Origin: a virus
Virus genome (UHGV): UHGV-0137970
Direction: 5' to 3' (one strand)
DNA length: 38,160 nucleotides
Shown: piece after piece, positions 1 through 38,160 of the stretch
How the letters are laid out: each line of letters starts with the position of its first letter
Position numbering within the stretch: the first letter of the stretch is position 1
Translations under genes and position numbers: made by a program
The notes under the pieces: model-generated
Seen by the model: only the letters and a program-made list of their open reading frames with translations
What the model was told of the DNA's origin: nothing
Databases searched by the model: none

Positions 1-340
1 TCGATAGTGCCGCCGCCGCTTTGAAGTCTGTAAACTTTCCTACTTTTTCAGTATATCTACCTACTTTGTCAAAGTTTACTATCTTAGAATCTTCATACCC
101 TGCCGCTTGGTCGAATAGTTTTTCTAGCTTTGCAAGATGTCCGCTCTTGTCTCGCCCTAGCATGTATTGTACTGTTGCGAGGTTTTCATCTATATACTCT
201 GCTAGCTCTTTATCTAGTAAAAGCGACTGCATAGTCTTAATGTCAAAGTCAATTCCAGCGGCTTCAAGGGCTTCTCTTCCATTCTTGCAAATCATAAAAG
301 CATTAGCAAACATTTGCTTTTTCTTTTTACTTATCGCCAT
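1..340 (-). CDS. terS: terminase small subunit, N-terminal ~113 aa (gene continues past window start)
   Basis: Manual reverse-complement translation from ATG at 340..338 gives MAISKKKKQMFANAFMICKNGREALEAAGIDF..., matching the N-terminal HTH pattern of Terminase_2/P27-type small subunits (KQ..F...Y....N...A...AGY). RBS GGAGAAAGGGG upstream. Absent from the ORF track because it runs off the edge. Confidence 0.5.
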   Translation of the reverse strand, partial: MAISKKKKQMFANAFMICKNGREALEAAGIDFDIKTMQSLLLDKELAEYIDENLATVQYMLGRDKSGHLAKLEKLFDQAAGYEDSKIVNFDKVGRYTEKVGKFTDFKAAAALS

Positions 341-1329
341 TTTATCGCCCCTTTCTCCACTTTTACATCAACCTTGACTATCTTTTTTAATAACTTTGCC
401 AATCTCTCAAAGTTCTTTGAAAATGTTCTTTTTATCTCGCTTTTAGTCTCTGTTACTTTTAAAAGCTCTTTTATATTTTTCTTGTGATAACCTAGCGTAC
501 TACGTGAGATATTAAGATTCTCACAAGTAAGCACATCATCAAGAATATCAATATCAAAGATGTATTGAAGATTCATTAAAGTTACTTCCTGCAACTTCTT
601 ACTACCTGCGAGCTTGTATTCTTGCAAAAGCTTAGATCTATTAAATTCAAGCTCTTTATTGATTCCATCAAGAATTATCTCTCCCAACACACATTTTAAA
701 ACTCTTTCAAGTGCTAGTTTTTGAATATTTCCCACGATGTGCAAGTCATATTTTTTTAACATCGCACCCTTTAAAGTGAGTTCCCCACGGAGTGCCTGCC
801 TTTTGCCTTTAGCTTTTGCCGCCCCCTTGGTGTCTTCAATCTCTTTTCTCTTGCTATAAATCTTAAAATATGCGTTCGCCTCTCGCCTTTTCTTGCCTTG
901 CTCCCTGAAATCTAGCCCGTCAAGTTCTAACCTCTGCTCCTTATCTGTATCAAAGTACAAACGCCCGTTAGGGTTTATCTGTTTATATGCTCTATATATG
1001 AGATTAAGAACATTATAATAGTTTCTTATGTTCTCAACTTCAAGTTGATTAGATATGTCAAGTGCCAGAACTTCAAGGTCGTTACTGGTTAAGGCGAGAC
1101 CTGTTATACTTCTGAAAATCCTTGTTACTGCTGCATGAACGTCGTTGATTGTTCTTTGGCGTTCTGCTAGTTTGTAGTTGTCTTCATTCTCGTATCTGGA
1201 ATAACTAAAAGCTACACAGACACGGCAATTACTGCGGTATTCTGAAATTGAGATAAAGTTGATAAACTCATATTTATCTACATTGAAGTTTTTAAATACA
1301 AGTTTATTGTTTTCTACAGTTCCAGACAT
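331..1329 (-). CDS. hypothetical 332-aa protein immediately upstream of terS. Possible rolling-circle-type replication initiation factor or late regulator
   Basis: Long ORF overlapping the terS start by 10 nt. Segment AYFKIYSKRKEIE...LRGELTLKG loosely resembles the RiYdK...RiElE core that I recall from Rep_trans-family initiators. HTH-like segment near the C-terminus (ISRSTLGYHKKNIKELL). Assignment is weak. Confidence 0.45.
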   Translation of the reverse strand: MSGTVENNKLVFKNFNVDKYEFINFISISEYRSNCRVCVAFSYSRYENEDNYKLAERQRTINDVHAAVTRIFRSITGLALTSNDLEVLALDISNQLEVENIRNYYNVLNLIYRAYKQINPNGRLYFDTDKEQRLELDGLDFREQGKKRREANAYFKIYSKRKEIEDTKGAAKAKGKRQALRGELTLKGAMLKKYDLHIVGNIQKLALERVLKCVLGEIILDGINKELEFNRSKLLQEYKLAGSKKLQEVTLMNLQYIFDIDILDDVLTCENLNISRSTLGYHKKNIKELLKVTETKSEIKRTFSKNFERLAKLLKKIVKVDVKVEKGAIKWR

Positions 1330-2921: not shown

Positions 2922-3146
2922 TTAAATTTCCCCCTCTCCTGGAGCTTTCTCCAGAATTATTTTATTTTTTTTCTTAGTGAGTTTGACATCTCTATCCTCT
3001 GTGGTTATTCCCAAATCTTGTAACCACTGGAAAGGAACGGACACCTTTGTGGTGGTGTCTCCCTTTCCTGATATATTAAACAAGACTTTATTTATTTTAC
3101 TTGTTTCTTTTTTAGGCATTTTGTAGCCCTGCTTTTTTCCATTCAT
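2922..3146 (-). CDS. AbrB/MazE/SpoVT-type swapped-hairpin DNA-binding protein (antitoxin-like or transition-state-regulator-like)
   Basis: TKVSVPFQWLQDLGITTEDRDVKLTKKKNKIILEKA matches the SpoVT_AbrB looped-hinge pattern (ltiPkeireelgi..gd.v.....g.iil.k). Likely starts at Met10 (ATG at 3119), where AATGCCTAA gives a stop/start overlap with the upstream gene. Confidence 0.5.
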   Translation of the reverse strand: MNGKKQGYKMPKKETSKINKVLFNISGKGDTTTKVSVPFQWLQDLGITTEDRDVKLTKKKNKIILEKAPGEGEI

Positions 3147-7488: not shown

Positions 7489-8100
7489 ATGAAAAAAGAA
7501 ATGTTTGATAGCATGTATATGCTAGACCTTACAGGAAAGGTCGAAAAAGATTATAAAGGGTTGAATTATATTTCATGGGCTAACGCCTACAAGTTAGCTA
7601 TGGAGCAGGACCCACAAATGACGTTTGAAGTATTGGAAGACGCCGACGGATTCCCATTATTTAGCCGTGGAACTTGTCACATGGTAAAAACTACAGTAAC
7701 AATGTTCGGAGAAACTAAAAAAATGTTTCTCCCTGTAATGGATAACAGACACAACGCAGTCGCAGAGCCTAACACTAGACAAATAAGTGATAGTATAATG
7801 CGTTGTCTAGTTAAAAATATAGCCCTTTTCGGTATAGGTCTAAGCCTATACACTGGTGAAGATTTAGAACAATTTAAAAGCCCTGAGCAGTTAATGAAAG
7901 AAGCAGAAGATAAAATAAAAATAGAAGATACACCAAGCCCAGAGGATAGAAAAATATTTATTGATGTTTTAAAGAGCCAATATTCAAATGAAGTTATTGA
8001 AAAAGCTTGTAAAGATAGTGATATTGATTTAGCTAATGCAACAAAATCAGAACTAAAATATCTTAGAAATATATTGAAAAGTAGTAAAAAAGTAAGTTAA
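7489..8100 (+). CDS. Rad52-like single-strand annealing protein (DUF1071/Sak-type SSAP)
   Basis: YISWANAYKLAMEQDP...VKTTVTMFGETKKMFLPVMDNRHNAV...IMRCLVKNIALFGIGLSLYTGEDLE reproduces the YLSWA...LPVMD...QR.L.K..A.HGLGLYlYaGEDLP signature that I recall for this phage SSAP family. Confidence 0.65.
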   Translation: MKKEMFDSMYMLDLTGKVEKDYKGLNYISWANAYKLAMEQDPQMTFEVLEDADGFPLFSRGTCHMVKTTVTMFGETKKMFLPVMDNRHNAVAEPNTRQISDSIMRCLVKNIALFGIGLSLYTGEDLEQFKSPEQLMKEAEDKIKIEDTPSPEDRKIFIDVLKSQYSNEVIEKACKDSDIDLANATKSELKYLRNILKSSKKVS

Positions 8101-9119: not shown

Positions 9120-9410
9120 ATAGGGTACCATTTTGTCACATTAATTTTTAAACCTACCAATATTAATAATTATGTATTGATAGATAAGGTACCTTTTTGT
9201 CAAATAAAAAAAGAGTGACAAAATGTCACCTATTTATAAGTTTATAAGTTTATATAGTTTAAGGAGCTCAAGACTTCCCTAAAAATAAGGACTTTAGCGA
9301 CATAAAAGTGAAGTCTTGTCAGTTTTCTGTGACGTTTTGTCAATAAAGTGTGAAGTCTTGTCAGTTTTCTGTGATGTTTTGTCAGCAAAGTGTGACGTTT
9401 TGTCAGAACT
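9120..9410. repeat. iteron array of a Rep_3-type origin (2.5 tandem ~42-bp repeats plus scattered TTTTGTCA/GTGACA boxes)
   Basis: aaagtgaagtcttgtcagttttctgtgacgttttgtcaat / aaagtgtgaagtcttgtcagttttctgtgatgttttgtcagc / aaagtgtgacgttttgtcag. Upstream boxes at 9127-9140, 9193-9228. Confidence 0.7.
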
Positions 9411-9448
9411 GTTTTTACTTATAAAGTATTAAAGATGTTTATAATGTA

Positions 9449-9475
9449 ATGTGAAAAATTGTTGCTTTTTTCACT
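9449..9475. promoter_or_regulatory. inverted repeat GTGAAAAAttgttgcTTTTTTCAC (candidate RepB operator), followed by an AT-rich DUE-like stretch
   Basis: Second copy GTGAAAAtttattaTTTTTTTCAC at 9619-9648, just before the repB RBS. Confidence 0.4.
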
Positions 9476-9618
9476 CATTGAATATAAAATGTGGTTATTA
9501 CTTATTTATAATTAAAATTTATATTCCAACATTTGTTACAAAATGTCGTACTTTAAAGTGTGAAAAAAACTTAATTTTTGGGTAGATTTTATTTAAAAAA
9601 TATTGTATATTTAATTAA

Positions 9619-9648
9619 GCGTGAAAATTTATTATTTTTTTCACACTA
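9619..9648. promoter_or_regulatory. second GTGAAAA/TTTTCAC inverted repeat overlapping the repB promoter region
   Basis: See 9449-9475. Confidence 0.4.
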
Positions 9649-9677
9649 TGATTACAATTTTAAAGAAAGGGGTTAGA

Positions 9678-10595
9678 ATGGAAAAAGAATCAAATGCAAT
9701 AGTAGAGTATAGTAAAGATTTTGCTACTTCTATGAATAATTATTCAGCTTATGAAATGGATTTAGTATTAACTTTAGCTTACTCAGCAAGAAAAAAAGTT
9801 ACCGACCACATGAATGTGGCAGTAGATAAAGATTTAGAATTAGAATTATCCTCACAAGCTATAAAAAAATTACTTCAAGGTAATGTTTCAATGAAAAGAT
9901 TAACAGAATCACTAGAGAAAATTTATGATACTAAAATTTACTTTGAGGAAGATGAGTATAATGTTTGTGAACATATATTTGATAAGCTATGTTTCAGTAA
10001 AGATAATAAAAAGATTATTTTTGTTCTTAAAAAGAAATATATTCATTTGTTTTTTAATCTTACTGGAAATTTTACCCAACATGAGCTTTTAGAATTTGCA
10101 AGTCTAAAGGGTAAATATGCTAAAAAAATATATCAAATTGTGATGAGCTATAAAGGGCTAAAAAAGAAAGAATATTCAGGAGAGTTTTTCAGGCACTTAT
10201 TAAATGTTCCTGAATCATATAGATGGGCAGATGTCGAAGCTAAGGTTATAGGGGTGACTAAAAAAGAATTTGAAAAAACTAATATAATAAACTTAGAACT
10301 GGAGAGAAAAAGAGCAGGAAAAGAAGTTGATAAAGTCATATTACATTGGGATATAAAAGAACCTGAAATAATAAAAGAAGAGCCAAAGAAAAAGCCTAAA
10401 AAAGAAGTAAAGAAAGAAGAAATTGAAGATATAAAAATTGTAGAACCTGAAGACCTTACACCAGAGGAAGAAGAAAAAGGACTTGAAAAATTAATATCTG
10501 ATGGAATGGATAAAGGCTTTATTGAAACTATGAAAAGAAATAATAAAACTATGTATATTAATTTTATAAGAGCTTGTTTAAAAGGGGTGGAGTAA
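9678..10595 (+). CDS. repB: Rep_3-family (RepA/RepB-type) theta replication initiator
   Basis: Sits directly downstream of iterons. Winged-helix-like segments (FTQHELLEFASLKGKYAKKIYQIVMSYKGL). Lys/Glu-rich C-terminal tail. Start placed at MEKESN... after RBS AAAGGGGTTAGAATG. Confidence 0.65.
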   Translation: MEKESNAIVEYSKDFATSMNNYSAYEMDLVLTLAYSARKKVTDHMNVAVDKDLELELSSQAIKKLLQGNVSMKRLTESLEKIYDTKIYFEEDEYNVCEHIFDKLCFSKDNKKIIFVLKKKYIHLFFNLTGNFTQHELLEFASLKGKYAKKIYQIVMSYKGLKKKEYSGEFFRHLLNVPESYRWADVEAKVIGVTKKEFEKTNIINLELERKRAGKEVDKVILHWDIKEPEIIKEEPKKKPKKEVKKEEIEDIKIVEPEDLTPEEEEKGLEKLISDGMDKGFIETMKRNNKTMYINFIRACLKGVE

Positions 10596-11101
10596 TGAAA
10601 ATAAACTACAAAAAAAGATTGGAATTACTAAAAGAAGAACATGAGAAATTATCAGGAACAAGAATAAAAGATAGTTTAGAGCTAGAAAAGCAGCTTGACT
10701 GGTATCATTATGCTTTAAAAAAATTAAAAGCAATTCCAGATATATATTTTGAACCTCACGAAAAAGAAAGATTAATGGAAAAGTTTAAAAATAAATATTG
10801 GTTTCTTATGCAAGAAGAAAGAGAAGAACCGATAAAATATATTTTACCAGAATGTGGACAAGTATTAATATACAAACTCCAAAAAAGAGATGTTGAAATT
10901 CAAGAGGAGTTAAAGTTTGAAAATGCTAGAGAGCATTACAAGGAATATTTAGACTGGTACTGTAAAGCTTGTGAAGAGCTTAATAAAATACCCGATATTT
11001 GCTTTGATGATAAAGAGAGAAAAGAGATTGTAGAGCATTTTGAAAAACAATTTCTTAATATACTTACTTTAATACAGGGGGTAGAAAATGAAAATAATTA
11101 G
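10595..11101 (+). CDS. hypothetical 168-aa protein with an internal tandem duplication, translationally coupled between repB and parA
   Basis: TAATG overlap with repB and overlap with parA. Repeats LDWYHYALKKLKAIPDIYFEPHEKERLMEKF and LDWYCKACEELNKIPDICFDDKERKEIVEHF. Confidence 0.5.
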   Translation: MKINYKKRLELLKEEHEKLSGTRIKDSLELEKQLDWYHYALKKLKAIPDIYFEPHEKERLMEKFKNKYWFLMQEEREEPIKYILPECGQVLIYKLQKRDVEIQEELKFENAREHYKEYLDWYCKACEELNKIPDICFDDKERKEIVEHFEKQFLNILTLIQGVENENN

Positions 11102-11822
11102 TTTTATGGTTGAAAAGGGTGGAACAGGTAAAACAACAGGAGCTAGAGAAGTAGCTGGAATGTTACAAAGGGATAAGAAAGTCTTGCTTATAGATTTAGA
11201 CTTCCAAAGAAACCTTAGTACATCATTAAATTTCGAGAGCTCTCGAAATATTTATGACGCTATTATGAAGAGGGATTTTAAAGGGAATATTGTTAAGATA
11301 ACAGATAACCTAGATTTAATACCTGGAGATCTAAGAATGAGAAACTTAGATGATGATTTAAAAGTTAGTATCACATCTGATTTTGTGATTAAAGAGCAAT
11401 TATCTGTGATTAATCACTATGATTATGTGATTATAGATTGTAGACCTGATATGAAAAAGCCTGAAACAAATGCAATTAATGCAAGTGATATAGTTTTAAC
11501 ACCAATAGAGCCTCACTCGTTTAGCTTAGATGGATTTGATATTTTAGAAAGTTTTATAGGAACGCATAAAAGCACTCTAAAACCTAATCTAATACATAAA
11601 GGGTATCTTAGTCGCGTACCCAACGACAAAAAGTTTTTAGAGGGTATTGGGGAGCTCTTGATTGATTATCGTGAGGATATGTTAGTGAGTTTTATAAGAG
11701 AGAATATAAAACTTAAAGAAGCTGAAATGTGTGGTGAGTTTATATATGAGTATTCACCACGTAGTAATGGTACAACAGACTTTGAAAATTTAACAAGGGA
11801 GATATTAAGATATGGTAAGTAA
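11088..11822 (+). CDS. parA: ParA/Soj-family partition ATPase (type Ib, no N-terminal HTH)
   Basis: Deviant Walker A MKIISFMVEKGGTGKTT. Size of 244 aa. Operon position after rep. Confidence 0.85.
   Translation: MKIISFMVEKGGTGKTTGAREVAGMLQRDKKVLLIDLDFQRNLSTSLNFESSRNIYDAIMKRDFKGNIVKITDNLDLIPGDLRMRNLDDDLKVSITSDFVIKEQLSVINHYDYVIIDCRPDMKKPETNAINASDIVLTPIEPHSFSLDGFDILESFIGTHKSTLKPNLIHKGYLSRVPNDKKFLEGIGELLIDYREDMLVSFIRENIKLKEAEMCGEFIYEYSPRSNGTTDFENLTREILRYGK
11231..11248. repeat. 18-bp perfect palindrome TTTCGAGAGCTCTCGAAA (site B, inside parA)
   Basis: Encodes NFESSRNI in parA. Different reading frame from site A, so conservation is at DNA level. Confidence 0.8.
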
Positions 11823-12483
11823 ATTTAATAAAGCTCTTAGACGTCGTGAAAGGGTCGTTCCTGCCCTTTCACAAGAAAGTAATACAATAAGTCAAGTAAT
11901 AGCCGAGGAGCTTTATTTTGACTATAATAGGCTCGTGATAGATACAGATGATAAGAACTCTTTAATAACTTATGAGAAAGAACTTCTTTACCAAAGAAAA
12001 AGAATTGGAGAAATTGCACTAACATTAGGGGAAACTTTGGAAAAGGCAAGAGAGATATTTGCTAAAAATAACCTTGAGGAAACTTTTACAGAGTGGTACA
12101 CAACGCTTGGGTACAACAAGGACCAAGTGTATTTACTAAGGGGTAGATATAGATTGTATCTGGAAAACCCAAGTTATAAAGATAGAGTCCAATCTCTATC
12201 TGATGTAGAGGTAAAAGAGGTTATTAATAAGGCTACTCCTCCAGCATTAGTATTTAAAGTATTAGATGGAGAAGTAAGAACAGGTAAAGGAATTAAAGAG
12301 GCTCGTAACCATTTTGCCGATGTCAACAAAATGGTAGATGCCGACGCCAGCAAAACGATAAATATTAAGAGTGAAAAGAGTATCCAAGATAGAATAATGG
12401 AAATTAATGATGAGATCTACAAGCATGAAACGGCTATAAAACTACTAAGAGAAGAAATGGCGGACCTAGTAAAGAAGCTTTAA
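11812..12483 (+). CDS. putative partition partner (ParB-like / centromere-binding adaptor), 223 aa
   Basis: Overlaps the parA stop. Coiled-coil-rich. Lacks the canonical ParB GxRR box, so assignment is by position only. Confidence 0.4.
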   Translation: MVSKFNKALRRRERVVPALSQESNTISQVIAEELYFDYNRLVIDTDDKNSLITYEKELLYQRKRIGEIALTLGETLEKAREIFAKNNLEETFTEWYTTLGYNKDQVYLLRGRYRLYLENPSYKDRVQSLSDVEVKEVINKATPPALVFKVLDGEVRTGKGIKEARNHFADVNKMVDADASKTINIKSEKSIQDRIMEINDEIYKHETAIKLLREEMADLVKKL

Positions 12484-13223: not shown

Positions 13224-13808
13224 TTATTTAGTTGCTGGAGCTGGTGTTGTTTGAGTTGCTGTTGGAGCTTCCCAAGCATTGTATCTAGGCATTACACCAG
13301 GACATAATGAATCTAAAGGCGTTACAAGTTTTCCAGGAACGAATGTTGCATTTACATAGCAATATAGGTTTTGGTCTCCTGCTGCTCTTCTTTCAGCTTC
13401 AAGAGCAATAGCTCCCTCTAAGTTAGTCTTAACTTTGTCTATTTCACAACTAAGTTGAGCTAGTCTAACTCTGTTATCAACTGCTTCTTTATTTAGATTT
13501 TCAAATAGAGTAGCATACTTTTCATCTTTTTTCTCAAATATTCCAAGCACTTCTTTGAATGTATTGATACCTACTCCATCTGCATACTTTTCAGCTTTAA
13601 GTTGTGCTATCTCTGCGTCTTTTTTACCAAGTTCTGCTACTGCTCCAAGTCCAGCTAAAGTATTGGTATTGTTACAGTTTCCTCCAAATAGTCCTCCTAG
13701 TAGTCCATTACCATTATTAGAACCATTTAAGATTCCTAAAGCTGTACCAGCTATTCCAAGACCTAGTCCAGTACCCGCTACACCTTTACTTGCATATTCT
13801 TCTGCCAT
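13224..13808 (-). CDS. membrane protein with N-terminal glycine-zipper TM segment, coiled coil and Cys-containing C-terminal domain
   Basis: GVAGTGLGLGIAGTALGILNG (GxxxG repeats). Heptad-like middle. C-terminal LYCYVNATFVPG...LCPGV. RBS AAGGAGG. Confidence 0.45.
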   Translation of the reverse strand: MAEEYASKGVAGTGLGLGIAGTALGILNGSNNGNGLLGGLFGGNCNNTNTLAGLGAVAELGKKDAEIAQLKAEKYADGVGINTFKEVLGIFEKKDEKYATLFENLNKEAVDNRVRLAQLSCEIDKVKTNLEGAIALEAERRAAGDQNLYCYVNATFVPGKLVTPLDSLCPGVMPRYNAWEAPTATQTTPAPATK

Positions 13809-14217
13809 AATATTACCTCCTTATAAGTGATATATTCATTGTATAACTTATAAGAAATTCATGCTTTAAAATAAAATTAAATAATATTTTATAATACAAA
13901 AACACGCCTACCAAATTTAGTAGGCGTGCTGTTTTTAAACTTTTTTCTCTTCAAAATATTTCTTTAATATCTTGTTGATGATAGAAGATTTAGTCTCATT
14001 AAAATCCCCATTTTCAACTAGTTTGATAATTTTTCTCTCCATGTTTTTGCTAGTGTTAAAGCATATTTTCGTAACATCTTTTCTACTCATTAATTCCCTC
14101 CCAAAAATTTTATTATATGTGCTCCTCCCATGTTGTTTTAAACTGTTATTTTATTTTGTTGGTACGTTTCTTTAATTCTGATTTATGCAATAACATTTTT
14201 AGTATATCACATTTTCT

Positions 14218-15478: not shown

Positions 15479-16396
15479 TTATTTTATTAAATTAAACTTT
15501 TCTTTGAATTTTTGTAGTGTTTCACTTGGTTTTGGTATATGTATAGTTGCATATCCAACTGGTTGATTTTCAGATGCACTTAAAGTATAGATAAGCCCTC
15601 TAAGTTCTATCATCATATTCAAATACTCTGTTGCTAAAGCTTCATCTTGTAATTTCATCTCTTGTATTGTTGAAGGAGTATCCATTCCCTCATATTCACT
15701 ATATTGAGCTTCTACTCTATCTAAATCTGTAGTTAAATCTTTCCAAGTGTGTGTTACTTTATCCCATTCTCTTTTTAAATATTCCTCTGGACATGGAACA
15801 GTTATAACCTCATCAGCTTCAACATATTGACCATCACTCAAAGAAACTATTTCTTTTTTAGTTTCTAAAACTACCTCATTTTCTTCAAGCTTTCTTTGAG
15901 CTCTCTTATATTTCTCATACTCTGTTGCCTCTCTTATCACATCTTTTTCAACTGTGATGTAGTAAGGAATATCTTTTCCATAATGCTGATATACTTCTTT
16001 TTGAAAATATTCAGCAGGTTTTTTAAGAGGTTGTTCAAATACGGCTATAATTTTAGATTTAAAGAATCTATCTGCATACTCTTTATCTATATAGAAGTAT
16101 TGTTTTTCACTATCTATTTCTACACTCTCATCAAAATCGCTCTCATGCTCTATAACATCTTCAGATAGAGTTTGAGAAGGATCTTCAATTACTTCAATAA
16201 ACTCTTCAATAGTATTTAAACTCTCATTAAATTTAAACTTATGAGGGATATCATTTCCCTCATAAATTAGAACTTCTTTAACTTGAAAATATTCTTTTCT
16301 CTCTTCAAGTTCTATTTCATTAATCATTTTTTCAGATACAGCTATACATTTAGCTATACCTTTTTTTGACAACTCTTTATCTAAATAAAAATACAT
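15479..16396 (-). CDS. acidic 305-aa protein downstream of the fibre cassette (function unknown; fibre assembly or accessory?)
   Basis: Start set at MYFYLDKE... after RBS AAAGGAG. The 23 upstream codons in the ORF track have no RBS. Confidence 0.5.
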   Translation of the reverse strand: MYFYLDKELSKKGIAKCIAVSEKMINEIELEERKEYFQVKEVLIYEGNDIPHKFKFNESLNTIEEFIEVIEDPSQTLSEDVIEHESDFDESVEIDSEKQYFYIDKEYADRFFKSKIIAVFEQPLKKPAEYFQKEVYQHYGKDIPYYITVEKDVIREATEYEKYKRAQRKLEENEVVLETKKEIVSLSDGQYVEADEVITVPCPEEYLKREWDKVTHTWKDLTTDLDRVEAQYSEYEGMDTPSTIQEMKLQDEALATEYLNMMIELRGLIYTLSASENQPVGYATIHIPKPSETLQKFKEKFNLIK

Positions 16397-16477
16397 TTTT
16401 ACTCCTTTCTTTTTTAATAAAATTGCTAGTAATTTAAAAATTTCTGTCCTTTTGTTATAGGACAAGTCATAGAACTA

Positions 16478-16522
16478 GCTAATACTACCAATCCAGCTAG
16501 CATTTGGCTAGGAACTACTTGG
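16478..16522. repeat. left arm of split inverted repeat (CTAAyyCTAmCAATCCA ... TAGGnACTACTTGG)
   Basis: Matches the reverse complement of 17325-17368 in two blocks (14/18 and 13/15). The first block is conserved out of frame relative to the proteins. Confidence 0.45.
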
Positions 16523-16918
16523 CAAGAGATTACAGATGCTTTTACTAAGTCTGTAAGCTCGAATGAGAGTGTAGGACAATATGCAGGTAGTAATACTGTC
16601 ACTCTTATTAAAGATAATTTGCCTGCTACAAGTTTGAAAATAGATTCATTTTCTATGTCAATTAATCCCCATGTACATAAAATCTATGGGTATGCCTTTG
16701 GGGATATTTTAAATAAATATGGAATAAACGATAACAAACATGACGGATCTTTTCAAACTGGTCCTGCTGAATGTAATGCTATGGATAAAGTATGCGAAAC
16801 AGCAGGTGGTGGAAGTACTGGAACTGCTTCACCTGTCACTGAAAACATGGGAACTGGTAAAGCTATTGACATTAAACCTAGGCATTACCTTGTAAAAAAA
16901 TGGCAAAGATTAACTTAA
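16478..16918 (+). other. start-less alternative tail-fibre C-terminal (receptor-binding) cassette, convergent with and overlapping the fibre gene by 9 nt
   Basis: Open frame begins right after a TAG with no start codon. The translation WLGTTWQEITDAF...DNLPATSLKIDSFSM...GTGKAIDIKPRHYLVKKWQRLT aligns along its whole length with the fibre C-terminus YLGTTWSKIEGRF...ANLPNVKLTVDTFSL...GSGQTLDIIPAYYTTHMWLRLS. Confidence 0.6.
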
Positions 16919-18238
16919 TCTCAACCACATATGAGTTGTATAGTAAGCAGGTATTATATCTAGTGTTTGTCCACTTCCTAAGGCTGATGTTTGTGGGCTT
17001 GCTGATGAAGTAGTTCCTGAATTATAGTTTGTTTTCTTCATTCTAAGTCCAAATGCTCCACCACCATCTTGTCCACACCACCCATACGATGTCCAAGAGT
17101 CGACAGGAATAACTTTTTCTCCATAAGTTACTCCAGGGGCTGAATAATAAGTGTCAAATGATTTTACAGCTTGGTATTTTGCTCCTGTTAAACTAAAAGT
17201 ATCAACAGTTAGTTTAACGTTCGGAAGATTAGCTTGAGAGATAGTCTTAGACATGCTACCACCAGTCTGCTTACTAGCTTGACTGCTAGAAGTACCTAAT
17301 AAGAATCTACCCTCTATCTTGCTCCAAGTAGTACCTAAATACTTAGATGATGGATTGTTAGAGTTAGTAGTAAGGTAAATGTCCCCTATTGCATAAGGAC
17401 AGAAATTTTTAAATTTCTCATAAATTCCTTTTATCTTATCCTCTATCTTTTTTGCAGTATCATATTCAGCAGATACGTTCCCTTTATCTAATTTATCTTT
17501 CTCTAAATCATCTACACGATTAGCAAGACCACCACCTGCACCTTGTACAAGCTCAAGTTGTTTTTTACCCTCTGCAATAATCTCATCTATCTTTTTATTA
17601 CCTAGTTTTTCAATTTCACTTCTTATTGTTGTATCAAGGTTATTAAGTTCTCTAAGTAACTCATCAGTCTCGTTTCTCAACTCTTGTGACATATTTTCTT
17701 TATCTACAAGTAGCAAATCCTTTATTTCCTTATACAAACTATCAATCATATTTTGGAATCTATCATATAGCTCTCCAATAGGTAGTGTCTCTATATTTCC
17801 TGTAGCTCCATTTCTAAACCATACACAATCATTAGGTAGATACGGAATATTATTTTGTCCGGCACTTCCACTATCTATAAAGACATAACTTTCTGTAATG
17901 GCGGTTTCTATATCCACTATATGCTGTTTAATCTCATCTTTAAGTTTATTTAAGTTGCTAGCTGTTATATCCCCTAGTTTATTAAAGTTTACACTAGGTT
18001 GGAAATATGGTAGTTTCTCAACTATCTTAATAGCTGTGTAGTCACTCCATACCCCGTTAGGATATAAAGAGAAGTCTATGTTTCCAGCATTGCTTGTATA
18101 TCTATCATTGGGTATTTTATATACAAACGCTTCTCTTTCCTTACAACCATAGACTTCACATTTAGAAATATCTAAACTTGTAGGATATAAGTGCCTATTA
18201 GTTTCTGTTTGGAAGTATTCTTTTTTAAACTCTAACAT
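16910..18238 (-). CDS. tail fibre protein (442 aa) with central coiled coil and C-terminal receptor-binding domain
   Basis: Follows terL in the same operon. Long heptad region (LRELNNLDTTIRSEIEKLGNKKIDEIIAEGKKQLELV). Ser/Thr/Gly-rich C-terminal domain. Confidence 0.6.
   Translation of the reverse strand: MLEFKKEYFQTETNRHLYPTSLDISKCEVYGCKEREAFVYKIPNDRYTSNAGNIDFSLYPNGVWSDYTAIKIVEKLPYFQPSVNFNKLGDITASNLNKLKDEIKQHIVDIETAITESYVFIDSGSAGQNNIPYLPNDCVWFRNGATGNIETLPIGELYDRFQNMIDSLYKEIKDLLLVDKENMSQELRNETDELLRELNNLDTTIRSEIEKLGNKKIDEIIAEGKKQLELVQGAGGGLANRVDDLEKDKLDKGNVSAEYDTAKKIEDKIKGIYEKFKNFCPYAIGDIYLTTNSNNPSSKYLGTTWSKIEGRFLLGTSSSQASKQTGGSMSKTISQANLPNVKLTVDTFSLTGAKYQAVKSFDTYYSAPGVTYGEKVIPVDSWTSYGWCGQDGGGAFGLRMKKTNYNSGTTSSASPQTSALGSGQTLDIIPAYYTTHMWLRLS
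17325..17368. repeat. right arm of the split inverted repeat inside the fibre gene at the constant/variable boundary
   Basis: Reverse complement reads ctaactctaacaatccatcatctaagtatttaggtactacttgg. Confidence 0.45.
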
Positions 18239-37978: not shown

Positions 37979-38160
37979 TTACAACACCCCCTCTGATTTT
38001 AAGTGATTAAGCACCCTTTCATCACGTGCCACACTATCGCTGTTAGCTTTTTCAATAGCCTCTTCATCGGATTTGAACAGGTTATCACCGATTTTAAGGT
38101 CAACAATAATTTCATTGTCTCCCCCTGTTGTCTCCCATTCTTGGAGCTCTCCGATTCTTT
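37979..38160 (-). CDS. 3' end of a gene running in from beyond the window (C-terminal 60 codons)
   Basis: Only frame open across the whole segment. Ends ...VARDERVLNHLKSEGVL-TAA at 37979-37981. Confidence 0.35.
   Translation of the reverse strand, partial: RIGELQEWETTGGDNEIIVDLKIGDNLFKSDEEAIEKANSDSVARDERVLNHLKSEGVL

Follow-up and report, generated by a model that had tools for sequence, protein, structure and literature searches.

A predicted two-cassette inversion module for the receptor-binding tip of a tail fibre in the phage genome UHGV-0137970

The virus genome UHGV-0137970 (38,160 nucleotides, the whole of which is referred to here as the window) carries a tail-fibre gene that faces, on the opposite strand, an alternative version of its own C-terminal end. 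The fibre comprises 442 amino acids (aa), of which the last ~160 residues are covered by the Pfam domain Gp10_C ("pyocin knob"). This C-terminus, termed cassette A, also matches tail proteins of the PHROG collection and is distantly homologous to the anti-receptor of Lactobacillus delbrueckii phages. The alternative version, cassette B, is silent, and the pair is bounded by two inverted copies of a short sequence, termed the core (Table 1). An earlier note on this DNA, made from the sequence alone, had proposed an invertible host-range switch here; according to the present analysis, positions 16428-17418 are predicted to form an intact module whose inversion would exchange two cassettes at the receptor-binding tip of the fibre.

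Table 1. Features of the fibre locus and its immediate neighbour (window coordinates)
Feature	Coordinates	Strand	Remarks
Constant N-terminal part of the tail-fibre gene (residues 1-275)	17415..18238	-	open reading frame 16910-18238; linker ends in ...AEYDTAKKIEDKIKGIYEK
Expression-site core ATTTAAAAATTTCTGTCC, encoding (K)FKNFCP	17397..17414	-	with outer AGAA to 17418
Cassette A, expressed receptor-binding C-terminus (Gp10_C / "pyocin knob" type), stop codon included	16910..17396	-	PF21939, E=1e-13
Near-palindrome AGATTAACTTAATCT, 15 nt, inside which both cassettes end	16907..16921	.	RLT* on one strand, RLS* on the other
Cassette B, silent alternative C-terminus	16450..16918	+	161 intact codons from 16433; without start codon or ribosome-binding site
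Silent-site core ATTTAAAAATTTCTGTCC	16432..16449	+	preceded by non-coding ...GCTAGTA, giving in-frame TAG TAA; extended site from 16428
Conserved 306-aa gene, function unknown	15479..16399	-	just beyond the silent site, reading away from the segment

The plus-strand frame was reported in the earlier note as start-less, and it does lack a usable start, the earliest start codon being a TTG at 16619; it opens, however, at 16433 and not at 16478, directly behind the in-frame TAG TAA. The 161 residues of cassette B align with fibre residues 276-442 at 31% identity (BLASTP, E=1e-24), in agreement with the homology proposed earlier, and they cover the full length of the Gp10_C profile at a weak score (E=1.8e-4, under the gathering score). 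The tail-to-tail meeting of the two copies on a pseudo-symmetric overlap is likewise borne out: the reading frames overlap by 9 nt (16910-16918) within the near-palindrome, and the gene tables of relatives show similar tail-to-tail overlaps of 8-9 nt. The 947 bp between the cores are taken up wholly by cassettes A and B, without a chaperone gene, as had been noticed. An in-silico flip between the cores yields an in-frame fibre of 436 aa ending in cassette B and places cassette A behind the TAG TAA. The parental junctions, ...TATGAGAA-core-TTATGCAATAGG and ...TTGCTAGTA-core-TTTTGTTATAGG, are thereby converted into ...TATGAGAA-core-TTTTGTTATAGG and ...TTGCTAGTA-core-TTATGCAATAGG. Over their first 275 residues the fibres P0001-P0003 retain 88-98% identity, and their C-termini differ.

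The strongest inverted repeat of the region is located at 16428-16461 and 17385-17418; it measures 34 nt, is 88% complementary, includes a perfect stretch of 21 nt and encodes FKNFCP, the first residues common to both copies. The homology thus starts at 16433, and not at the repeat near 16478 where its boundary had originally been drawn. That other repeat (16479-16495 and 17351-17367; 17 nt, 82%), taken in the earlier note for the recombination site, reflects ordinary protein-level conservation of the N-x-x-NP and LGTTW motifs, and its two arms align ungapped in the same frame rather than in frames shifted by one nucleotide. With up to three mismatches allowed, the window holds exactly two copies of the core (18-20 nt), where shuffled sequences would lead one to expect 0.09 occurrences, and none of 100 shuffles produced two or more. 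The two cores are convergent and lie 965 bp apart, start to start. Their outer flanks are GAGAA on the expression side and GCTAGTA on the silent side, and the expression site forms, with its outer AGAA, the dyad AGAAATTT-AA-AAATTTCT.

The same core is widespread. Loci (L numbers) were gathered by an exact core search of IMG/VR and through homologues of the fibre and recombinase proteins (P numbers), and sites were collected at up to two mismatches; some loci therefore come from an exact-pattern search, while partner sites and loci found through proteins were not selected for an exact core. The core is nearly invariant in ~35 loci, from ~25 independent contigs of Fusobacterium phages and prophages. 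Across 64 distinct contexts of 78 nt (85 sites) its consensus is ATTTAAAAATTTCTG(T/C)CC, of which positions 1-15 and 17-18 are invariant except for one T4C; position 4 thus varies in a single context and position 16 in 10 of the 64. The T4C variant occurs at both sites of one contig, L025, whose cores at 52-69 and 3124-3141 both read ATTCAAAAATTTCTGCCC, a co-variation that would be expected if recombining sites have to be alike at this position. In F-K-N-F no synonymous position varies, TTC included, despite the 30% content of guanine and cytosine of the genome, and variation starts only at the wobble positions of Cys and Pro. "Expression" flanks (...GAGAA, in frame with the fibre N-terminus) and "silent" flanks (non-coding and containing stop codons) are mutually unrelated, and the homology begins abruptly at the core, be the outer flank coding or non-coding. 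A G at position -3 (58/64) and an A at -1 (56/64) are kept, in the non-coding outer flanks as well, so that the dyad AGNAATTT-AA-AAATTTCT is preserved around an asymmetric centre. Such a pattern of core and flank conservation indicates a putative protein-binding recombination site rather than coding constraint.

Wherever both cores lie on one contig they are convergent; usually they stand ~0.9-1.0 kb apart and surround two tail-to-tail Gp10_C cassettes; cassettes of this kind are bounded by the core in Fusobacterium podo- and myophages and in prophages. The window shares the entire arrangement, with a convergent core pair and two tail-to-tail Gp10_C-type cassettes with overlapping stops, one of them joined to the fibre N-terminus and the other cut off by stop codons ahead of it. 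Two unusual members of the family may be mentioned. In a decayed module (L010:3328-3819) the cores are 474 bp apart and the distal core leads into only the last ~8 codons of a cassette (NIWKRLS*), the silent cassette thus being almost wholly deleted. In L022:5673-11817 (IMG/VR contig 3300029460_000002, 66.5 kb) there are six core sites, with two fibre modules in mirror-image arrangement and two recombinase gene copies converging on one cassette pair, which may represent a genuine double module or two strains joined during assembly.

A recombinase gene adjoins the sites in a number of these relatives. The 318-aa protein YR318 (encoded at L014:2870-3826, for example, and represented by P0207) ends 3-17 nt before a core on six independent contigs (L012/L022, L014/L020, L015/L023, L021, L024 and L025) and in one chromosomal prophage that was sampled six times (L034-L039). 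It contains a Phage_integrase domain (Pfam, E=2.9e-21) and a SAM-like N-domain, XerA, XerC and XerD are its closest matches in NCBIfam and PDB, and the catalytic motifs GFR, HSLR, GH and HY appear to be present, as judged by eye in the sequence. The enzyme of the relatives is thus a Xer-like tyrosine recombinase and not a Gin/Cin serine invertase, which departs from the analogy with Mu G and P1 C drawn in the earlier note. The YR318 loci exhibit a shufflon-like layout with four cassettes, in which the four sites alternate as + - + -. The order is fibre-S1 [A> <B] S2, then a single small gene or a pair of them, the recombinase, and finally S3 [C> <D] S4. Relative to L014, the L015 locus has its S2-S3 block inverted together with the recombinase, and any + site can therefore pair with any - site. 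The YR318 family numbers 306 clusters (E<1e-20) in Fusobacterium, Cetobacterium and Pseudoleptotrichia, which makes its supply in trans plausible.

Segments were aligned in both orientations between related loci, and the identities show that near-identical relatives differ by an exact inversion between the cores. L036 and L037, from the same chromosomal prophage and with an identical recombinase, have flanks of 100% and 99.9% identity, and their segment matches at 94.4% when flipped and at 81.4% unflipped. For L034 and L038 the flanks are 75.6% and 95.4% identical, the segment 96.8% flipped and 56.0% unflipped; for L017 and L013, compared with one flank only (82-85%), the figures are 87.5% and 54.4%. 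A weaker pattern of the same kind is seen for L035 and L039 (74.8% flipped, 54.1% unflipped). One expression flank is joined to alternative cassettes in L016 versus L017 and in L008 versus L015. Between L034 and L038, the variant base of core position 16 (T or C) moves along with the cassette, which places the crossover at or before position 15.

The cores also leave a trace in assemblies, since short-read contigs break there. The contig L024 (2340 nt) consists of the S2-S3 block and stops 1 nt short of a core at both ends, and the contigs L025, L026, L006 and L027 end 3-51 nt from a core. Of 55 index blocks, 45 have the recombinase P0207 on contigs of less than 5 kb, the long contigs being mostly long-read assemblies. 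Fibre genes and recombinases of this type are consequently fragmented in a systematic manner in metagenomes, as the core sites break short-read assemblies. The ends of two Logan contigs (L031 and L032, at 9 and 60 nt before the expression core) were considered as signs of flipping and rejected, for they coincide with the start of the common linker.

Within the window, cassette B is intact and not decayed. It matches the expressed C-terminus of P0121, a fibre of L019 with an unrelated N-terminus, in 482 of 483 nt and in all but one of its 161 residues; with the P2-like phage fibre P0123 (L018), where this tip is the expressed one, it shares 90% identity. The identity extends to the core-to-core segment as a whole, which is 97% identical to that of L019 (window 16432-17497, L019 913-1978) in an unrelated flank context. 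On the side of cassette B this identity ends exactly at the core, and the segment thus appears to move as a site-bounded unit between phages of different morphotype. In L019 itself (161-2110) the A/B segment is situated between two full fibre N-termini, one per strand, namely a 412-aa P2-H-like fibre and a 239-aa fibre behind gp48/Baseplate_J; either a single segment, by inverting, swaps the tips of two fibre genes, or L019 is a chimera in which two phages were joined at this common segment. In comparison with L006, a 96%-identical relative, the expressed cassette A is under purifying selection (ratio of non-synonymous to synonymous polymorphism rates, pN/pS, ~0.21). The synonymous rate pS against L006 amounts to 0.01 for the silent cassette (16433-16915), 0.16 for the expressed cassette and 0.08 for the N-terminus; the low value of cassette B suggests its recent replacement or homogenisation rather than vertical descent.

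The remainder of the genome has the minus-strand layout of a T7-like podovirus, with portal, capsid, tail tubular proteins A and B and internal virion proteins, and it also encodes a 1630-aa gp16-like protein, a large terminase and an endolysin. A plasmid-type block occupies 9233-12483, including a Rep3 initiator (9621-10595) preceded by 4.7 copies of a 21-nt iteron (9308-9406), and ParA (11088-11822). A Sak single-strand annealing protein is encoded at 7489-8100 (Pfam E=1.8e-31). The two ends of the window (1-340 and 37979-38160) are halves of one 173-aa gene, which is whole in L028:6990-7511; the window is therefore a complete circular genome cut within a gene, and it is held in contigs of 38,184-38,279 nt from several assemblies. 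The Rep3/ParA block together with the lack of an integrase in the genome gives this T7-like Fusobacterium podovirus the appearance of a phage-plasmid. The phage is uncultured. Megablast searches gave no match, either for the fibre region among GenBank phages or for 25 kb of sequence among PLSDB plasmids. An exact look-up of the large terminase subunit (TerL) returned two short Logan contigs only, gene callers having picked another start.

The genome was surveyed for an enzyme that could act on the sites. A tblastn search of the window with four recombinases from relatives, two serine ones included, gave nothing better than E=0.4. A diversity-generating retroelement was rejected as an explanation, since no reverse-transcriptase domain is present in the window's open reading frames and the two copies are only 31% identical in protein. 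A 332-aa frame at 331-1329 (minus strand) was considered as a hidden invertase and also rejected. It has only 18 homologues among 1.8 billion representatives, with Y158, K160 and E163 invariant; its single-sequence AlphaFold model was unusable (predicted local distance difference test, pLDDT, 35), and a model from a 15-sequence alignment (pLDDT 88) has as its best PDB match the staphylococcal rolling-circle initiator RepDE (4cwe; probability 0.95, TM-score only ~0.3). Weak sequence hints also place it with replication initiators, and it may be a second, Rep_trans-like replication initiator.

The reading given the most weight, with slightly better than even confidence, is that a Xer-like recombinase supplied in trans inverts the segment between the two cores. 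YR318 would bind the dyad and exchange strands inside the core, at or before position 15; the ~0.95-kb segment would flip, cassette B would replace cassette A in frame, and the host range would change. As the window's genome holds no recombinase, this Rep3/ParA phage-plasmid would flip its segment only when a co-resident prophage supplies the enzyme. The inversion of the receptor-binding domain that the earlier note had put forward is partly supported, by the layout, by the in-frame product of the in-silico flip and by the two orientations of relatives, yet its crossover site lies ~45 nt further out than proposed; we infer flipping in the window's own phage from the intact module and from these relatives.

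Several observations weigh against this reading. The only link between the recombinase and the sites is their adjacency, and the invariance of the core is partly inflated by the way in which loci were ascertained. No integrase- or resolvase-family domain was detected in the ~30 open reading frames of the window with Pfam, PHROGs and NCBIfam, so that the earlier remark on the absence of an adjacent invertase holds for the genome as a whole. Both orientations had been anticipated for this phage, and no flipped copy was found: five 38-kb assemblies, some of which may be re-assemblies of one sample, all encode the identical 442-aa fibre, no fusion of the fibre N-terminus with cassette B occurs among 5.8 billion proteins, and IMG/VR contains no match to the flipped-junction pattern. 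Assemblers closed the circle through both sites, which implies that one orientation dominated in the samples. Finally, the silent cassette differs from that of L006 by 10 non-synonymous and 1 synonymous changes and gives no sign of purifying selection, small as these numbers are.

Much of this would also fit a static passenger or cassette reservoir, the main rival though a less favoured explanation, in which the segment was acquired horizontally as a whole from a recombinase-bearing myophage and never inverts here, cassette B either being raw material when the phage now and then recombines with others or going on to decay. The lack of a recombinase, the single orientation in all five assemblies, the near-identity to L019 in unrelated flanks and the ten-to-one excess of non-synonymous changes are all in its favour, and the stub left in L010 demonstrates that modules can decay. 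It accounts less readily for the state of the sites, both of which fit the family consensus down to the non-coding AG..A, or for the 161-codon frame, which is intact in the window and in L006. Loci without a recombinase in the retrieved DNA (L013, L016, L017 and L007) nevertheless occur in both orientations. Moreover, the silent slot beside the 306-aa gene holds differing cassette types in the window and L006, L003, L018, L026 and L027, which argues for active turnover rather than fossilisation. The last two loci were the only further relatives obtained by a metagenome scan with the silent-site flank plus core, a pattern that had no match in IMG/VR.

The symmetry of the site raises the question of a serine invertase of the Gin/Cin/Hin type, contributed by the host or another prophage and acting through a 2-bp crossover at the central AA. 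The site indeed has two 8-bp arms in dyad symmetry about an asymmetric AA, a form that we take to resemble serine-invertase sites superficially, and L017 encodes at 13320-14024 a 234-aa protein with a Resolvase domain, 3.3 kb from a module without an adjacent tyrosine recombinase. This protein, however, appears in no other locus of the set, the window has no Resolvase domain, the enzyme repeatedly encountered beside the sites belongs to the tyrosine recombinases, and the segment lacks the chaperone genes of Mu and P1; a serine invertase is accordingly regarded as improbable. Homologous recombination by RecA or the phage Sak protein, acting on the 21-34 nt of inverted homology without a dedicated enzyme, is judged slightly less probable still. 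The phage does encode Sak and its arms do have a 21-nt perfect stretch in common, yet the breakpoints of relatives always fall within the same 18 nt, longer similar stretches within the cassettes (the LGTTW and NLP regions) are not used as breakpoints, and the conservation of the core exceeds coding need and reaches into non-coding flanks. Chance similarity or a decaying duplicated pseudogene, to which the missing start codon of the cassette might point, is hardly credible in view of the homology at E=1e-24, the near-identity to an expressed copy (one change in 483 nt), a repeat that no shuffle equals and an architecture that recurs in dozens of loci; the earlier note's refuting case, a unique decayed pseudogene with no conserved repeat in relatives, is contradicted by the intact frame and by the core in ~35 loci.

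Beyond inversion in trans, the core sites probably also let whole segments move between phages. This raises a broader, tentative hypothesis, held with well under even confidence, in which otherwise unrelated Fusobacterium phages draw on a communal pool of receptor-binding cassettes with the core as their common docking standard, and the Xer-like recombinases of some members would flip the modules of recombinase-less co-residents in trans and move core-to-core segments between replicons. A phage without a recombinase would in that case switch or replace its host-range determinant with the enzyme of a neighbour. The members of such a pool may include T7-like phage-plasmids, P2-like and Mu-like myophages, and chromosomal prophages or tailocin-like clusters.

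Homologues of the 306-aa gene adjoin the distal site in L003, L009, L015, L017, L018, L026 and L027; its N-terminus reads M(Y/L)FYLDKELxKxG, and in other loci it is replaced by a shorter gene of 194 aa. Domain and family profile searches gave no significant family match for it, and an exact look-up of the protein returned no record. The gene would be common to both fibre variants, and its product could be a fibre chaperone or an accessory protein for all cassettes. A promoter and terminator scan of the region gave no signal above shuffles. The linker upstream of the core (17415-17500, minus strand; ...YDTAKKIEDKIKGI.EK) is 70-85% identical among fibres with otherwise unrelated N-termini (P0011, P0012, P0018, P0022, P0081 and P0111, the last with two copies), and may belong to the exchangeable unit or act as a trimerisation neck. 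The podophage fibre N-terminus, in P0003-P0008 and P0122, is joined to quite different C-termini, among them collagen-like repeats and an SGNH/GDSL hydrolase domain. The breakpoints, close to residues 183, 212-220 and 272, reveal a further level of modular exchange in which the core site is not used.

Fusobacterium is of clinical importance in colorectal cancer and oral disease, few usable phages are available, and host range is a main obstacle. The module points to the receptor-binding domain, offers a natural catalogue of exchangeable tips and supplies, in FKNFCP, an exact in-frame junction for swapping them. Were the preferred reading of inversion in trans true, the host range of a phage would depend on the prophages carried by its current host.

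Full-text literature searches found no description of a Fusobacterium system of this kind. The window's module is an intact orphan within a family of tail-fibre inversion systems that use a tyrosine recombinase, a family that did not turn up in the literature open to search. In the classical systems, Mu G with Gin, P1 C with Cin and p15B with Min, inversion swaps the C-terminal receptor-binding part behind a constant fibre N-terminus; the serine invertase gene stands beside the segment and fibre-assembly chaperone genes lie inside it. P1 and p15B are phage-plasmids, and invertases of the Gin/Cin/Min group complement each other in trans. The window resembles this group, to which e14 with Pin also belongs, in its constant N-terminal fibre part and in its inverted alternative C-termini bounded by inverted repeats, and differs from it in having no adjacent serine recombinase, no chaperone genes and a segment of only ~0.95 kb. 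In the R64 shufflon, the tyrosine recombinase Rci is encoded beside several invertible segments with alternating sites, and the C-terminal variants of PilV set partner specificity. There the protein is a conjugative-pilus adhesin, the cassettes are unrelated and rci is always present, whereas the window carries a phage fibre; the sfx site of R64 is presumably unrelated to the core. The window shares with the tyrosine-recombinase shufflons the alternative C-terminal cassettes at a short inverted site, but not the adjacent tyrosine recombinase.

Programmed inversions in tail-fibre genes are enriched genome-wide. In BV01-like phages of Phocaeicola vulgatus (PMC13596623, a 2026 preprint), a recombinase-flanked multi-cassette region overlaps a tail-fibre gene at its distal end, and reads showed all configurations. 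That system has a 10-bp motif, TGGGAGAACT, unlike the core, a recombinase in cis and Bacteroidota hosts; its cassettes are non-homologous and shift the position of the stop, whereas those of the window are homologous.

The closest precedent is the Rin shufflon of Bifidobacterium prophages (Mavrich et al. 2018, PMC6109161), in which a receptor-binding protein with a constant N-terminus is provided with alternative C-terminal cassettes through short conserved sites. An armless, XerD-like tyrosine recombinase flanks the Rin locus, and related prophages show alternative arrangements; in the window's family the Xer-like recombinase is found in the relatives, the window being devoid of any recombinase. 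The Rin site rix, TTCCCTAACCC, measures 11 bp and is unlike the core, and the Rin cassettes have a TP901-1-like receptor-binding protein fold and belong to another host phylum, in place of the Gp10_C knob. Also distinctive here are the tail-to-tail cassette pairs with overlapping stops and the use of one site across podo-, P2-like and Mu-like phages. The same study (PMC6109161) described a simpler inverted locus without a flanking recombinase and suggested an invertase acting in trans; the present work makes a stronger sequence-based case for a host-range switch that would rely on a recombinase encoded elsewhere in the cell.

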